From the UHGV virus genome UHGV-0114973: a stretch of 18,293 nucleotides of DNA; one strand, given 5' to 3'. The translations under genes were made by a program, and so were the position numbers. Every line of letters begins with the position of its first letter. The stretch's first letter is position 1. The notes under the pieces are model-generated. The model was not told where the DNA came from. It did no database searches and was given only the letters and a program-made list of their open reading frames with translations. This document shows, one piece after another, positions 684 to 11,397 of the stretch. The DNA comes from a virus.

Positions 684-947
684 TTATATTTTACCCTCCT
701 GCATCAATCCTTCAGCAACAGTCATTTGGTAACGTGGTGCTTTCCATGCTTGAAGTGCTTTTTCTGCACCTTTTTGTGTTTTATACGGTTTGATACTTGT
801 TAAAATAGCAGTTGTAATACCTGCACCATAACCACGGTCTGTTTCCTGACAAACTCGAAACAAACCATCAATTTGTTTAACTACTAAACGTTTGAACGCA
901 ATATTGCCCGTTTCTTTGTTGATGTAGCGTTGAATTACCCGTTCCAT
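684..947 (-). CDS. small hypothetical protein (87 aa), antisense insertion in the tail operon
   Basis: ATG at 947-945 preceded by GAGGG with an 8-nt spacer. No signal peptide or transmembrane segment. Sits in the 448-bp gap between the major tail gene and the chaperone gene, on the opposite strand. No family recognised by eye. Confidence 0.45.
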   Translation of the reverse strand: MERVIQRYINKETGNIAFKRLVVKQIDGLFRVCQETDRGYGAGITTAILTSIKPYKTQKGAEKALQAWKAPRYQMTVAEGLMQEGKI

Positions 948-5797: not shown

Positions 5798-6153
5798 TCG
5801 GTGATCGCTACGATATTGATAAATGGAATTGTACACACGAGGTTAGTCAGTGGTATCAGGTCCACAACTACCCACACGTATTGAAAACTGTTTCAGGTGA
5901 TGAATGGGATATTGCGTTTGTTCGTTGGATGCGAAAACGTTTTTTACCAATTACCACACCGGAACAAGGTGCACTCGTACTGATGAAGAACAGATATTCA
6001 GGCGGTTTTCATGTCGGCGTGTGGGATTGTGGAATGGTTCATCATTGTTATCAACCACCGGGTGATTCACCGGGACAGACAATCAGATCACCTTTAAGTA
6101 TAATCAAGACAGCACATAAAGAAATCACGTTCTGGAGAATGAAAAGTGTCTAA
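5794..6153 (+). CDS. NlpC/P60-like cysteine peptidase-fold tail assembly/tip protein (gpK-like)
   Basis: 119 aa. Candidate catalytic Cys in WNCTHEV and His in GGFHVGVWD, the spacing typical of NlpC/P60 and CHAP papain-like folds. ATGA overlap with the upstream gene. Position matches lambda K. Confidence 0.55.
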   Translation: MIGDRYDIDKWNCTHEVSQWYQVHNYPHVLKTVSGDEWDIAFVRWMRKRFLPITTPEQGALVLMKNRYSGGFHVGVWDCGMVHHCYQPPGDSPGQTIRSPLSIIKTAHKEITFWRMKSV

Positions 6154-8677
6154 AGTCATCTATCACACTAATCCTGTTGAACACGCTGATAACGTTGACT
6201 TTGGTGAATGGATGCTGAAACGCTGGCCCGTGGGTACAGTTCGTCCGCGTGGGTTACTGATTTATAAAAACGACGAAAACATTACCCAAAAGTGGGTTAC
6301 TGACCCCAGCGTATTGACTGATCCTGATGCTGTTTATCATATTTATGAACTACCAAAAGGTGGAGTGGTTAGTGCAATAACGAAAGTTATTAGCACAATT
6401 TTAAATCCCATTTTAAAATTGTTCATGCCGAATACCAGTGCATCGGCTAATCTTAAGAATTCACGTTCAGCATCGTCTAACAACGCGCTTCAGGGGCGTA
6501 CTAATGCTTCACGACCGGGTGAACGTATTTCTGATATCCGCGGTCGTGTACTGGCATATCCTGACCTGTTAATGGACTACCGAATCTTCATTGACCGAAC
6601 AGAATATGAAGTTCAGTTTCTGTGTCTGGGTGCTGGTGAATACGAAGTCGAAGATGTTCGTGATGGTATTACACCTGCTGTAAATATCAGCGGTGAAAAA
6701 TTAGACTTTTATAAAAAAGGTAATGCACCAGGGTATGGTTCTCCATATATGAATATCGGTGGTGCAATTGATATTAACACTTTTCCGATCATGGTTGCTA
6801 AGTCGTCGAACGAAGCAGACGGATCTGAAGTCAAGCCACCAAACTATGCTGATATCAGCAAAGCGAGTTTTAAAATTTACAGCACTGGTGAAATTGATAC
6901 TACGATTACCAGTGATGATAACACTACGATTGACTGGTCGGAACGTGCACCAATCGGTAGTAAAATTCGTTTATCACAATTTTACAGTTTTACACCTAAT
7001 ACGTTACCGTTAAACACGTATGTACGTAATGACCTGTCCGGTGAATATGATGTTATTTATGCAGGTGAGAATACGTTAATCATTGATACTACTGGTCGTG
7101 AAGGTTGGGATGCTCTGTCTGAAAGTGGTCAGGCTGCATATACACAGGCTTATTTGCGAAACGACGGTTACTGGGAATTTGAAACCACTGAAGGAAGTGG
7201 AAGTATTTTATACAAGTTTTCACCGTCTCTTGACAGTACCACACCGTATATTGTCGGGCCTTATCTGATTGACAGTGCGGATAAGTTGATGATTAATCTT
7301 TATGCACAGAATGGTGTGTATAAAACTGATGGCGACATTTATCCGTTCACCTGTAATTTCCAGGTAGTATTGTCAGACCCGAACGGTGTGAAAGCGAATG
7401 TGACACACTCTATGTCTGTTCGCGGTCGTTATACAGAAGCCGTAGGTAATTCATTAATTGTGGATAACCCTTTTGACGGTCCTGTCAACGTGTCTGTAAG
7501 ACGACTATCAAATACAGATAAAGACTTCGAAGGGTCTGTTGTTGACAACATCAAGTGGCGCGATTTATACGCTATCACGAATGTTTCTCCGCGTTCCTAT
7601 GGTGATGTGACATTGATCCATACAGTGACAAAAGCAACAAACGCTGCACTGAAACAAAAAGAACGTAAATTAAACATGATTGCAACACGTGTGTATAACG
7701 ATGTTGCAAGTAGTAATTTTGCAGACGTTGTAATGTCAATGCACACAGATCCTTTATTTGGTCGTCGCACATTGGACACTATTGATCGCGATGCTTTATA
7801 TGCTGTTCAGGAACAACTTCTTGAATATTTTGGTGACCAACGAGCAATTGAAGTTGGCTATACGTTTGATAATAACAGTACGACGTACGAAGAAGGATTG
7901 GACACTATCTGTAACACGGTGAATGTTAAACCGTATCAGATCGGTAGTGTATTGTATTTCTGGCCTGAATTACCACAGAACCAGTCCGCAATGCAGTTTG
8001 GTCACGCATTTAAGATCCCTGACAGTGATAAACGTACGCGCTCTTTTGCGCCACCTAAAGAATATACTGGTGTTCAGGTTAAATACTTCGATCACGATGA
8101 AAAATCATATTTATACGTAACTAAAGGTGAGGAAACAAACCTCAATAAGATAGATCTTGTCGCATGTCAGTCGCGATATCTTGCAAATATCCGTGCTAAT
8201 CGTGAAATGAATAAGTTACGTTATCAACGTATTACCCACGAGTGTACAGCGCTTAGTATTGGATTACAGGCTACCCCAGGTATGCGAGTGGATATGATTG
8301 ACAATACCCGTATGAAACAACATGAAGGTGTTGTAGTTGACGTTGACGGTTTAACACTTATTCTTAGTGATCCTGTTACGTTCACCACGGGTAATACATA
8401 CAGTATAACATTGACACACCGACTGGGAACACTTGAAAACATTCCTGTAACTGCCGGGGATGATGAGTTTTCCGTGGTGATGGCGTACCAGCCATCTGAA
8501 GAAATTTATACAGGATGGTTGCGTGACCGTACAGCATATGTGATCCGTGCTGATGATGAGCGTAGCAAATTAGCAATGCTTGTTCAGAGTATGGAACCGT
8601 CAGGAAGGGATAATAACTATCAGGTAGGTTTAACGTGCATCAATTACGATGCACGTTATTATCAGGATGATTTATAA
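6146..8677 (+). CDS. tail tip/hub protein (gpJ-like, without a long C-terminal receptor-binding extension)
   Basis: 843-aa ORF starting at a GTG with GGAGA 7 nt upstream, overlapping the previous stop. Large beta-rich protein at the end of the tail assembly operon. Confidence 0.6.
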
Positions 8678-8706
8678 CAAGTTATCTAAGCCGTTGGCTT
8701 GTTTTT

Positions 8707-9096
8707 GTTGCAACATCTGAGCAGTGGAAAGATAAGCAGACAGGAGAAAAGAAAGAGCAGACTGAATGGCATCGCGTGGTCATCTTCGGTAAACTTGCTG
8801 AAGTTGCAGGAGAATATCTTCGTAAAGTCTCGCAGGTGTATATTGAAGGCCAGCTTCGCACTCGTAAATAGACTGACAGCAACGGAGTAGACCGATACAC
8901 TACGGAGATTGTCATTCCACAGATGGGTGGAGTTATGCAGATGCTTGGCGGTAAACGTGATGATTCTGGTCAGCAACCACGCCAGCAACCTAAAGGCGGA
9001 TGGGGAACAAACCCGCAACAGCAGCAACCAAAACAACAAAGACCACAAGGAGGAAATGAGCCTCCGATGGACTTTGTTGACGACATTCCGTTCTGA
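8707..9096 (+). pseudogene. ssb: ssb remnant: 5'-truncated, with an in-frame amber codon at 8869-8871
   Basis: Frame-1 translation reads [81 protein letters not shown]...[16 protein letters not shown]. This is collinear with E. coli and F-plasmid SSB from about residue 37 to the C-terminal DDIPF tip. The conserved Trp codon TGG is replaced by TAG. No start codon and none of the N-terminal OB-fold residues are present. Confidence 0.8.
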
Positions 9097-9106
9097 TGAT
9101 AAATAT

Positions 9107-9126
9107 AACCCCGCCGAAGCGGGGTT
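9107..9126. terminator. bidirectional hairpin terminator between convergent units
   Basis: AACCCCGC, loop CGAA, GCGGGGTT. Flanked by A-rich sequence on the left and TTGTTG on the right, so either strand sees a hairpin followed by a U-rich tract. Sits between the ssb remnant stop (9094-9096) and the tailspike stop (9136). Confidence 0.5.
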
Positions 9127-9135
9127 GTTGAAATA

Positions 9136-11397
9136 TCATGTTATGTTGCCATATGTTGCTGATGATACCTGATTTATCACAGCGGAAGAACCTGAACCTT
9201 TACGTATACCGTTTACATCAGCTGACATTAGTGCCGGTAAGGTTACTTTAGAACTCCCGCCTGCATATCCAAGATTACCCGCTGTTGTACCAGAAGTCCT
9301 AAGGCCAGTTATTAGGAGAGAACCGGCGCTACAAACAAACCCAGAGAAAGGTGCTGCTGGTATACCTTGAATATTAACCAGATCTAAATCTGCAACAGTG
9401 TAATTGCAATTTGAAATTAATGCAGGTATCAAAGACCCATAAACACCTAAACGTAAGCGTACATTAGATGATTGGTTCTTTAGCACCGCAACAGCCGTTT
9501 CAGTGGCGGAAGAGCCTGTCACGTTGTAAACATTGAAATCCAACTTCAGAGGCGCTCCTGGCTTACCCGCAAAACCAGTTGTCGAATCATCAATAAGTCC
9601 GTAATTAACGTTCATTACGTTACCCTGAATTACTCCAGTTGCCCCAGATCCTGGTGAAGCAGGGTTGAACGCAATGGCCCTGTAAGTAACTACGGTAGAT
9701 GATGACTCACCGTTACCTTTAATATTAACATTGGTAATTGAAACTCTGTTATCTATTGTACCAAAGTAAATAGGAGTCGCCGGGCAGGCCTTACTCTCCA
9801 AACCACTAAGGGTTACAAGGTTTATGCCAGTCTGTGTAATCAAAGCGGGCCATGCTGGTATATAATTACCAAATGCTAAATCGGACACCTGGTTAGAGAA
9901 TCCTTTAATAATGGTGCCATTAGACACGCATGAGCTAAAGGCCACTCCGTTCACGCAGTGCTCAACCAATAGATTGCCGAAAAAATGGTCAATAAGTGAC
10001 TCAAACTGGATACCAACACCGCCTCGCCTGACACCATTCGCGTCTGTACGAAGATATTTAAACCCAGCAGACCAAATATCGTATGTATAAACACTATCAG
10101 AGCTGGAGATTAAAAGACCAGCACCAGTGCGTCCCGCCCATCGGGCGTCACCTGTAGCATTAAAATCGTAAAATGTAACTTTAAATCCTTGAAATGTGTG
10201 CATCTCTCCGCTCATGTCACTAAATTCAATCGCGGCATTGCTTTCTTCTGAAGGATTTGTCAGCACAATATAAGACAATCCCATCCCTGCACCAATCATT
10301 CCTCCGCCATTTTTGTTGTAACGAATCGTAGAAGGTGACGTAACGCGATACCATAACTTAAGATGGCTATCTATTCTGTATTTTCCCGGTGAAAGTAGGA
10401 TATATGACTGGAAATACTCGGATTGATAATAGCTGCCAGCAACTACCTCCACGTTAAATTCACCACACGTCGCATGCCATGCTTTATGGAACGCGTCAGT
10501 GCAGTCAATGCTTGAAGCTAACTCATCATAAGTGTTAACTGTTTTTGCTCCGAACCATTCAGGTCTAACAGGTCCCGTTGGAACTTTCACAGATGGTACA
10601 GTTAGATAATTGGCGATAAAATCATCTTCTGTGTCAAATATTTGATAACAACCAGCATCAATTTCTGCATTAAATTTAACGACTGCACCGTTTCTTATTT
10701 TTAATACTGCACCATGAATAAAAGTAACAGGAATATTAAATGTAATGTTTGAATTTATAAGATATGTACCGGGGACAAATACGACAGGATTGCCAGATGA
10801 CGAAAGATTTTCTAGAGCGGCATTTATCCCCGGCGCATCATCAGTGACACCATCACCAGTGACATTAGCCATATCTTTAATTGATATATGCTCAGATAGC
10901 CAATCGTGAACAGTCTTAATTTTAGAACCGTTTATTGGTTGCATGGTTGCTATAAGTGAGTCGCCAAAACCGTCAGCATCTGAACTTAAATTAGCACGCA
11001 ATGAAGCATCACCAACACTAACCCATCCACCAAGACCAATGCCACCAGCAGTTTCCGGAGTTGAACCAGTATCAACTGTTTTAGGAAACTCGCCATCCCA
11101 GCGGTAATATTCACCAGTTGCTTCGTAACGCAATACCTGATTAGGTAATGTAAGTATCGCACCATCTTCGAAGCTATCCATCGTTATATAGCCGACCTGA
11201 GATATAGCCTGATTGTACAGGGTTTCTAAACCATCAAGTGTCTTGTTGGTCACTGATTGACCACGGATCGTATCGGTAACATCCAACGCGTGTTTACCGT
11301 TTTCATCACGACTTTTTGCAACGTGTTCAATATGTAAAATCGCTTGTTTGCCTGTTTTCAAATCATCAGCACTGATATAATCGTTACAGTTAGCCAT
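9136..11397 (-). CDS. tailspike protein, probable polysaccharide depolymerase with a right-handed beta-helix
   Basis: Start taken at the ATG 11397 (MANCNDY...) with GGAGA 7 nt upstream, rather than the TTG at 11424. After an N-terminal module of about 190 aa comes NVTGDGVTDDAPGINAALENLSSSGNPVVFVPGTYLINSNITF, the hallmark start of pectate-lyase-type beta-helix tailspikes. The remainder is Gly/Ser/Asn/Thr-rich. Confidence 0.8.
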   Translation of the reverse strand: MANCNDYISADDLKTGKQAILHIEHVAKSRDENGKHALDVTDTIRGQSVTNKTLDGLETLYNQAISQVGYITMDSFEDGAILTLPNQVLRYEATGEYYRWDGEFPKTVDTGSTPETAGGIGLGGWVSVGDASLRANLSSDADGFGDSLIATMQPINGSKIKTVHDWLSEHISIKDMANVTGDGVTDDAPGINAALENLSSSGNPVVFVPGTYLINSNITFNIPVTFIHGAVLKIRNGAVVKFNAEIDAGCYQIFDTEDDFIANYLTVPSVKVPTGPVRPEWFGAKTVNTYDELASSIDCTDAFHKAWHATCGEFNVEVVAGSYYQSEYFQSYILLSPGKYRIDSHLKLWYRVTSPSTIRYNKNGGGMIGAGMGLSYIVLTNPSEESNAAIEFSDMSGEMHTFQGFKVTFYDFNATGDARWAGRTGAGLLISSSDSVYTYDIWSAGFKYLRTDANGVRRGGVGIQFESLIDHFFGNLLVEHCVNGVAFSSCVSNGTIIKGFSNQVSDLAFGNYIPAWPALITQTGINLVTLSGLESKACPATPIYFGTIDNRVSITNVNIKGNGESSSTVVTYRAIAFNPASPGSGATGVIQGNVMNVNYGLIDDSTTGFAGKPGAPLKLDFNVYNVTGSSATETAVAVLKNQSSNVRLRLGVYGSLIPALISNCNYTVADLDLVNIQGIPAAPFSGFVCSAGSLLITGLRTSGTTAGNLGYAGGSSKVTLPALMSADVNGIRKGSGSSAVINQVSSATYGNIT
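11373..11381 (+). promoter_or_regulatory. candidate extended -10 promoter (TGaTATAAT) for the lysis genes, inside the tailspike 5' coding region
   Basis: TG at 11373-11374 and a perfect TATAAT at 11376-11381, about 40 nt upstream of the ATG at 11424. No good -35 element. The divergent start codons are only 26 bp apart, so a promoter must lie inside a neighbouring gene. Confidence 0.25.

Follow-up and report, generated by a model that had tools for sequence, protein, structure and literature searches.

A truncated phage ssb gene between the tail operon and the tailspike gene of a 9NA-like siphovirus, probably a scar of tailspike exchange

Two published accounts (Casjens et al. 2014, PMC4153490; the BASEL collection paper, PMC11990801) describe the modular and horizontal exchange of tailspike receptor-binding domains (P22, Det7, 9NA, and others), in which a conserved N-terminal anchor or joint is combined with an exchangeable body, and this exchange occurs across unrelated phage groups. 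In 9NA, the tailspike gene is inverted and lies downstream of the tail genes (PMC4153490; PMC11990801). The locus described here differs from the exchanges already known in that a datable by-product appears to have been left behind, a piece of the donor's neighboring gene, which would tell from which group the donor came and where the cassette begins on the left. In the searched text of PMC4153490 and PMC11990801, no description of such an ssb fossil was found.

The neighboring gene is an ssb of the bacterial type. In SSB, strands β1–β2 close the OB barrel and form the dimer interface, Trp40, Trp54, Phe60, and Trp88 (E. coli numbering) are the aromatics that stack on single-stranded DNA, and the C-terminal acidic tip (D-F-D-D-D-I-P-F) binds partner proteins. 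The SSBs of E. coli, Salmonella, and plasmids (PDB 1eqq, 7f2n) belong to the same family as the fragment studied here (ssb′), in which Trp40, Trp54, Phe60, a Gly/Gln-rich linker, and a DDDIPF-type tip are recognizable; they differ from it as functional homotetramers with a complete OB fold.

Closer to the fragment are genes found in Skatevirus-like siphoviruses (Seszw_37 of Salmonella phage Seszw_1, vst472_62, VIP0041 of Vi II-E1, Bas80_0069, Segz_52, and the ssb of DS8 and of HC8A), with 84%–92% nucleotide identity from codon ~33 to the stop codon, the same Q-rich linker and acidic tip, and the same tail-to-tail position with a tailspike gene. The terminator hairpin downstream is also the same, except that it is absent from Vi II-E1 and different in Bas80. 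These genes are full length (160–163 aa) with an ATG start, whereas the copy studied here lacks codons 1–32 and has an amber codon at Trp88. The phages that carry them, called donor-type below, are siphoviruses of 42–48 kb (Skatevirus Seszw1 and VSt472, HC8A, Deseoctovirus DS8, Segzyvirus Segz1, Macdonaldcampvirus Vi II-E1, and Bas77–80). In all seven donor-type genomes examined (Seszw1, VSt472, HC8A, DS8, Segz1, Vi II-E1, Bas80), the full-length ssb closes an exonuclease–recombinase–ssb operon and converges on the tailspike or tail-fiber gene.

An annotated relative is Bas82_0054, the "single strand DNA binding protein" of Escherichia phage KarinMuster (PQ850612.1). It is an orthologous fragment with an identical 5′ breakpoint after the tail-tip gene, but it keeps the TGG codon, one extra base brings a TTG into frame, and its terminator is different. 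Bas82_0054 is probably over-annotated. In Sashavirus BDX09P1 and 536P12, the equivalent fragments are unannotated and have lesions of other kinds.

The locus and the ssb fragment

The window, that is, the whole stretch of 18,293 nt analyzed here (UHGV virus genome UHGV-0114973), is a 9NA-like (Sashavirus/Nonanavirus) siphovirus. Its relatives (Salmonella phage Solent, Sashavirus BDX09P1, and the Escherichia phages AVIO78A, PJ16, PDP46, and Bas82) are 94%–96% identical to it across 72%–80% of its length. The genes follow in the order tape measure, minor tail proteins, J-like tail tip gene (plus strand), ssb fragment, tailspike (minus strand), and lysis genes. The features around the junction are the following.

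6146–8677, plus strand: J-like tail tip gene, the final gene of the rightward tail operon (843-aa ORF), with its stop codon TAA at 8675–8677 as the left edge of the junction
8631–8658, plus strand: strong hairpin still inside the J-like gene, at its 3′ end, with UUAUUAU after it (−16.5 kcal/mol, z = −5.4)
8678–8701, plus strand: junction spacer of 24 nt between the J stop codon and the start of the ssb homology, present in the alignments of all seven fragment-bearing genomes
8702–9096, plus strand: very probable ssb pseudogene (ssb′), the 3′ two-thirds of a phage ssb of the bacterial type (donor codons ~33–160), with SSB homology and without an in-frame start
8869–8871, plus strand: amber codon TAG replacing the conserved TGG (Trp88 of SSB), which is TGG in 12 of the 12 other aligned copies
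9105–9128, both strands: GC-rich bidirectional terminator hairpin (AACCCCGCCGAAGCGGGGTT), apparently imported with ssb (−18.8 kcal/mol, z = −5.3 on the plus strand; −15.8 kcal/mol, z = −4.6 on the minus strand)
9136–11007, minus strand: tailspike body or receptor-binding part, a pectate-lyase-like β-helix (Pfam PF12708), exchangeable and different in every related genome
11008–11208, minus strand: tailspike joint domain Tail_spike_N, aa 64–130 (Pfam PF18668, E = 1.2e-16), the right-hand patch shared with donor-type phages
11209–11397, minus strand: 9NA-type N-terminal anchor of the tailspike, aa 1–63, the resident form in every Sashavirus/Nonanavirus phage, not related to that of the donors

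The J-like gene has a weak Pfam match to the GpJ FNIII-A domain, under the gathering score, and its counterparts are annotated as tail tip or tail protein in Solent, Bas82, Sasha, and 9NA. The protein ends in …YYQDDL. In the annotations of Solent and Sasha, a hairpin identical to that at 8631–8658 figures as a terminator; in the window it is the probable terminator of the tail operon, upstream of the ssb fragment. The small hairpin at 8687–8701 was rejected as a terminator (−5.6 kcal/mol, z = −0.9; not conserved in Bas82).

The relationship of ssb′ to SSB is clear. For a comparison with PDB sequences (phmmer), the internal stop was translated as Trp and the 129 residues beginning at VATS were used; the enterobacterial SSB chain 7f2n_A is matched at E = 6e-46 and 1eqq_A at 1.9e-44, residues 2–129 aligning with SSB residues 36 to the C-terminus. 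The collinearity with SSB noted in the initial annotation is thus real, and the corrections to its starting point are cosmetic: residue 35/36 instead of about 37, and, for the DNA, ~8702 instead of 8707, where the homology to the full-length genes begins in the alignments at TTT(C/T)TGTTGCAAC. The coding part ends at 9093, and the stop codon TGA (9094–9096) is followed by TGA and TAA. The Pfam SSB profile (PF00436; E = 1.5e-23) is matched over positions 30–101 of 104 only, whereas the full-length gene of Seszw1 covers 1–101; with 29 of the 104 positions missing (strands β1–β2, dimer interface), the OB fold is incomplete. In the frame of ssb′ (that of position 8677), no ATG, GTG, or TTG lies between a TGA at 8668–8670 and the fragment. 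A TTG does occur at 8699, but in another frame, since the window has one base fewer than Bas82 in a T/G run. The window copy has no intact ORF with a start codon and a ribosome-binding site.

Of the four stacking aromatics, Trp40, Trp54, and Phe60 are kept and Trp88 is the stop codon. The exact 30-mer containing the amber TAG was not found in IMG/VR. Whether the amber is real or a sequencing error, the verdict is the same, since the window copy has neither a start codon nor an N-terminus. The copy also carries Gly74Val, and its acidic tip reads DFVDDIPF (Asp to Val); the tips of functional donors vary (DFDDDIPF, DFDDSIPF, GFDEDIPF), and the tip change alone is not diagnostic.

Lacking a complete OB fold, a start codon, and Trp88, ssb′ should not be a functional SSB. 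Clear homology to a functional gene occurs here together with truncation and disabling mutations, as in a pseudogene. The segment is very probably a nonfunctional ssb fragment and an ordinary recombination scar, carried in with the tailspike module. The initial annotation had already read it as a nonfunctional remnant, startless, without the N-terminal OB-fold residues, and with an amber at a conserved Trp codon, and had tentatively connected the scar with tailspike module exchange; these points are borne out, the last one by the shared breakpoint, the donor synteny, and the two homology patches described below.

A shared junction with different lesions

The identical junction occurs in seven 9NA-like genomes: the window, Bas82, BDX09P1, 536P12, the IMG/VR contigs L017 and L018, and the metagenome contig L019. 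It consists of the J stop codon in GATGATTTATAA, the 24-nt spacer, and ssb from codon ~33. The ssb fragment is absent from six other members of the group (Solent, Sasha, PJ16, AVIO78A, 9NA, PDP46), in which the tail-tip gene and the tailspike are separated by 0–92 bp or by one small ORF. Since the J gene of Solent ends GATGATTAA, the left breakpoint lies at the J stop codon itself. Such a comparison of the junction in related phages had been proposed in the initial annotation, and the single breakpoint that it reveals indicates one founding event for all fragments. The copies differ as follows.

Window: amber TAG for TGG, Gly74Val, a tip Asp changed to Val, TTG not in frame
536P12: 1 nt deleted after EWH, tip shorter by one residue
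BDX09P1: linker interrupted by TAG, four radical replacements, DDLIPF tip
L019: 2 nt deleted within GEKKEQ
Bas82: open frame starting with a TTG that has no Shine–Dalgarno sequence
L017 and L018 (near-identical): open from the same in-frame TTG as Bas82

There are thus four different disabling lesions in six independent lineages (L017 and L018 counted as one), and three of the seven copies are open. Lesions that are independent and different among orthologous copies are those of a pseudogene.

Of the changes confined to a single sequence, the fragments have 12 nonsynonymous and 7 synonymous, a relaxed pattern next to the 8 and 20 of the donors (Fisher p = 0.03; p = 0.008 in a smaller set). Between pairs of fragments, ω over the OB part is 0.04–0.12, with 13–21 synonymous versus 4–9.5 nonsynonymous differences; in the full-length donor ssb, ω is ~0.03. 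Simple rotting of the fragments in place is hard to reconcile with these counts because the differences are almost only synonymous, unlike those of a dead sequence that drifts. The combination of a low pairwise ω with lesions proper to each copy is attributed to re-import from functional donors; in some lineages, the low ω could in principle reflect selection on a truncated protein. The Bas82 copy is annotated as an SSB gene.

Other comparisons point in the same direction as re-import. Between fragments, dS is 0.31–0.55 versus 0.22–0.28 in the adjacent J gene (536P12 left out of the latter, its indels making the ungapped comparison unreliable), and for the window and Bas82 the excess of the dS of ssb′ over that of J has p = 0.01, from ~56 synonymous sites. 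The fragments are 87%–90% identical to each other and 84%–92% identical to donor alleles, i.e., they are no closer to one another. Particular variants are shared with particular donors: 536P12 has GTGGACAAATACACCACTGAG, as do Segz1 and Vi II-E1, including a two-base codon change (CGA to AAA), where the window is of the Seszw/HC8A type, and the DDSIPF-type tip of Bas80 and Segz1 is found in L019 and BDX09P1. A GGW-type linker is common to the window and L017/L018. Among Sashavirus genomes, the divergence changes abruptly inside the fragment at ~8979–8999 (max-chi-square scan, permutation p ≤ 0.003), a result that is supportive only, since the low-complexity linker and, in Bas82, the different terminator account for part of the breakpoint signal. 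The donor ssb genes are near saturation at synonymous sites, and part of the variant sharing could be homoplasy. On balance, we lean toward repeated re-import from functional donor ssb genes as the process that shaped the fragments.

A static scar, with one ancient capture followed by neutral decay in situ only and with homoplasy behind the likeness to donor alleles, would account for the single 5′ breakpoint common to the copies, and the nucleotide divergence of the OB part between Sashavirus genomes (~9%–11%) indeed exceeds that of the 3′ end of J (~7%–10%) only a little. Neutral decay, however, predicts ω near 1, far from the predominance of synonymous differences in every pair of fragments, and it would have to accommodate linked multi-site blocks shared with particular donors (CGA to AAA among them), significant internal breakpoints, and, to the right, tailspike bodies that have demonstrably been replaced in every lineage. 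A static scar is on these grounds unlikely.

Expression signals and source of the fragment

One can also imagine that the fragment works as an N-terminally truncated SSB or as an SSB-tail decoy, started at the junction TTG (as annotated in Bas82) or at ATG 8923. Its product would present the disordered linker and the acidic tip, and it would titrate host SSB partners or poison host SSB tetramers; the window copy would then be a recent loss-of-function allele or a sequencing error. The open frames of 129–133 aa with an in-frame TTG in Bas82 and in the IMG/VR contigs L017 and L018, the strong amino acid conservation of the OB part (the ω values given above), and the …D(D/S/V)DIPF tip kept in most copies all speak for such a product, to which we nevertheless give little credit. 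The disabling lesions lie at different positions in four of the six lineages, three copies, the window's among them, have the TTG in another frame, no Shine–Dalgarno sequence precedes any candidate start of ssb′, and the frame of ssb′ relative to the J gene varies among copies. The conservation falls on OB residues, which a tail-only decoy would not need, while strands β1–β2 and the dimer interface are missing. Radical replacements are enriched among the lineage-specific changes (G74V, G68R, G107W, R86H, R72S), the tip is mutated in several copies (including EDIPF, one residue short), a strong terminator hairpin precedes the fragment, and six related phages are entirely without it.

The peptide starting at ATG 8923, raised as a speculative decoy in the initial annotation, is not upheld. 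This ATG is the inherited Met106 codon of the donor (ATG in HC8A, DS8, and Vi II-E1, ATT or GTG in other donors, ACG in Bas82), and, besides the mutated tips, sister copies lose either the tip (premature TAG) or the frame (indels). The same annotation had seen no convincing ribosome-binding site there, with which we agree, the nearest GGAG being 17 nt upstream and too distant.

Since ssb′ has no start codon and no first OB-fold strands and lies downstream of the hairpin that probably ends the tail operon, no protein is expected from it. For a promoter of ssb′, only weak matches (9 of 12 positions) were found, five versus 2.2 expected, with no clear excess. The window contains no tRNA, and a phage-encoded amber suppressor was rejected on this basis. 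An antisense ORF of 120 aa (8686–9048) was likewise rejected, its length not being conserved among copies. A reading more speculative than the docking site proposed below is that the open copies starting with TTG (Bas82, L017, L018) might encode an SSB tail protein with a defective OB part, which would disturb host SSB partners or defenses that sense SSB.

As to the source, the initial annotation had pointed to the host or to a plasmid. A remnant taken directly from the ssb of the host chromosome or of a conjugative plasmid would agree with the bacterial family of the SSB, with the ~75%–80% identity of its OB part to the E. coli and Salmonella SSB proteins, and with the presence of ssb on thousands of plasmids. 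In blastn against 72,556 plasmids and 5,426 E. coli genomes, however, the best matches reach only 71%–76% nucleotide identity over ~55% of the segment and leave the linker and the terminator unmatched, versus 84%–88% over ~95% for the ssb of Skatevirus-like siphoviruses, where the match in most cases extends through the terminator hairpin on the 3′ side. A scan of 185,579 species-representative genomes did not find the junction pattern, and the arrangement of ssb and tailspike is already present in the donor phages. A direct bacterial or plasmid origin is therefore very improbable. The sequence comparison suggested in the initial annotation for finding the donor did lead to a donor group, although to another one than it had named. 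Because the phage ssb genes match better and show, as found here to the right of the J-like gene, the same layout of ssb, terminator, and inverted tailspike, the donor is to be sought in another phage and not in a host or plasmid; judged by these alignments, it is a Skatevirus-like small siphovirus. The immediate donor of the window's tailspike body and ssb allele (with the GGW-type linker) was not found in any collection searched, and the transfer is for this reason reconstructed, not observed.

Hardly credible, finally, is a J–SSB′ fusion made by recoding (−1 frameshift at GAU UUA UAA in the window or readthrough of TAA in Bas82) and giving an SSB-derived extension of the tail tip, for, although the ssb′ frame of the window is open back to 8671 as the −1 frame of J and that of Bas82 is in frame with J with only TAA between, the frame relation differs among copies (−1 in the window, 536P12, and L019, 0 in the others), which rules out a conserved fusion, a second in-frame stop is present in BDX09P1, L017, and L018, there is neither a canonical slippery heptamer nor a downstream stimulatory structure (the 8687–8701 hairpin being insignificant by its z score), and the extension in the window would end at the amber after ~65 residues.

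The tailspike cassette and its exchange

The hairpin at 9105–9128 was scored as the minus-strand terminator of the tailspike gene and forms the left edge of the variable tailspike cassette. It is conserved in Seszw1, VSt472, HC8A, DS8, Segz1, BDX09P1, 536P12, L018, and L019, and the homology to all of them ends at ~9129–9130. For the tailspike body that follows, the phage collection gave no match in nucleotides, and the most similar protein, at 70% aa, is that of Enterobacter phage Arya. Homology resumes in the joint, where ~10997–11193 of the window is 74%–82% identical in nucleotides to the tailspike genes of Seszw1, VSt472, DS8, Segz1, and Bas80, and aa 61–135 are 73%–80% identical to donors. 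The anchor is 80%–93% identical in amino acids to those of Bas82, PJ16, AVIO78A, Solent, 9NA, and PDP46 versus 20%–25% to donor tailspikes.

Two patches are thus common to every fragment-bearing genome and every donor, namely, ssb′ with the terminator (84%–90%) and ~190 nt of the tailspike gene, with unrelated bodies between them. The contig L019, for example, follows the window as far as 9129, then carries a different body, and rejoins the window at 10996. Some bodies are shared across the two phage groups, that of Bas82 with Bas80 and that of 9NA with Seszw1/Segz1 (partial matches). The locus has what is expected of an exchange cassette, flanking homology on both sides of a variable body and the same gene order in the donors, so that co-transfer of a neighbor is expected; for the window itself, no donor with the same body beside a full-length ssb was found.

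In the founding exchange, one crossover would have taken place in the conserved N-terminal joint domain of the tailspike, and the other would have been an illegitimate join of ssb codon ~33 to the stop codon of the J-like gene. With these two crossovers, the recipient would have received the 3′ two-thirds of ssb, the terminator, and the tailspike body. We infer the order of events in this exchange; the breakpoint, the donor synteny, and the two homology patches are directly observed. The decay of ssb′ would have followed, with TGG to TAG at Trp88, Gly74Val, and Asp to Val in the tip of the window copy. Later swaps with this donor group probably made passive use of the fragment of ~400 bp and the terminator as the left homology arm. 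Such swaps may have crossed over inside ssb′ and overwritten its 3′ part with functional ssb sequence, after which decay would have resumed.

A further step can be proposed tentatively, and we regard it as possible without favoring it: ssb′ and the terminator may act as a portable homology arm of ~430 bp, a "docking site" for the repeated capture of tailspike bodies from co-infecting Skatevirus-like phages, with the joint domain as the other arm. If this were so, host-range switching would be easier in the fragment-bearing phages.

In practical terms, the annotation of a 130-aa "SSB" in Bas82 and similar records should be corrected, as what it names is very likely a dead fragment. The locus reveals no new mechanism or gene family; the process is known and would not surprise a specialist. 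The cassette boundaries (~9129 and ~10996–11200) and the donor group should be useful for host-range engineering and for reading mosaic junctions in 9NA-like phages. The locus provides a clean example of how an illegitimate join may fossilize a piece of the donor's neighboring gene, which can then give homology for later legitimate exchanges.

The ssb fragment of Bas82 and the antisense frame

In the 9NA-like phage Bas82 (L001), the 130-aa product annotated as "single strand DNA binding protein" represents the 5′-truncated fragment that the window also carries:

Bas82_0054: L001 6100-6492 (PQ850612.1 30145-30537), truncated ssb fragment, called from TTG

There is no Shine–Dalgarno sequence at this TTG start, and Bas82_0054 as an SSB gene is probably an over-annotation. 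The ssb fragment of the window also contains an antisense ORF of 120 aa (8686-9048, minus strand). Since the antisense frame is stop-free over 71 to 149 aa depending on the copy of the fragment, this ORF probably arises as a side effect of the Q-rich codon composition.

The tail-tip junction and other variable spots of the tail operon

The final codons of the J-like gene contain a strong terminator-type hairpin (window 8631-8658), which is conserved in Solent and Sasha and annotated there as a terminator. In PDP46 (L016), also 9NA-like, an additional 87-aa ORF (L016 721-984, minus strand), which may be a fiber chaperone, is found between the tail-tip gene and the tail fiber, the latter being longer (808 aa). 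This arrangement adds a third solution for the tail-tip/tailspike junction.

Farther upstream, Solent (L002) has a 624-bp hypothetical gene (L002 686-1309, minus strand) that separates the major tail gene from the chaperone genes, whereas the counterpart in the window (∼640-1080) is shorter, with only an 87-aa ORF (684-947, minus strand); this is a further indel/mosaic spot in the tail operon. The window ORFs 1086-1508 and 1520-1804, upstream of the tape-measure gene, form a putative tail assembly chaperone pair, and their Solent counterpart is annotated as such a pair with a programmed frameshift.

The tailspike and the exchange of its body

On the minus strand of the window, the mechanically delimited tailspike ORF opens at TTG 11424. 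The start in all relatives is ATG 11397 (MANCNDYISADD...); the AVIO78A annotation uses the longer start. A search of 50,697 phage records found no nucleotide relative for the receptor-binding body (9136-11007, minus strand). At the protein level, it comes nearest to Enterobacter phage Arya (70% aa) and E. coli O157 phage vB_EcoM_JN03 (48%).

One tailspike/tail-fiber body is common to 9NA (L015 648-2669) and to the Skatevirus-like phages Seszw1 (L003 5683-7710) and Segz1 (L010), and another to Bas82 (L001 6630-8573) and the Skatevirus-like Bas80 (L006 2973-4880). The sharing extends even to 9NA, a phage without the ssb fragment. Bodies common to both groups, 9NA included, show that receptor-binding modules are regularly exchanged between 9NA-like and Skatevirus-like phages.
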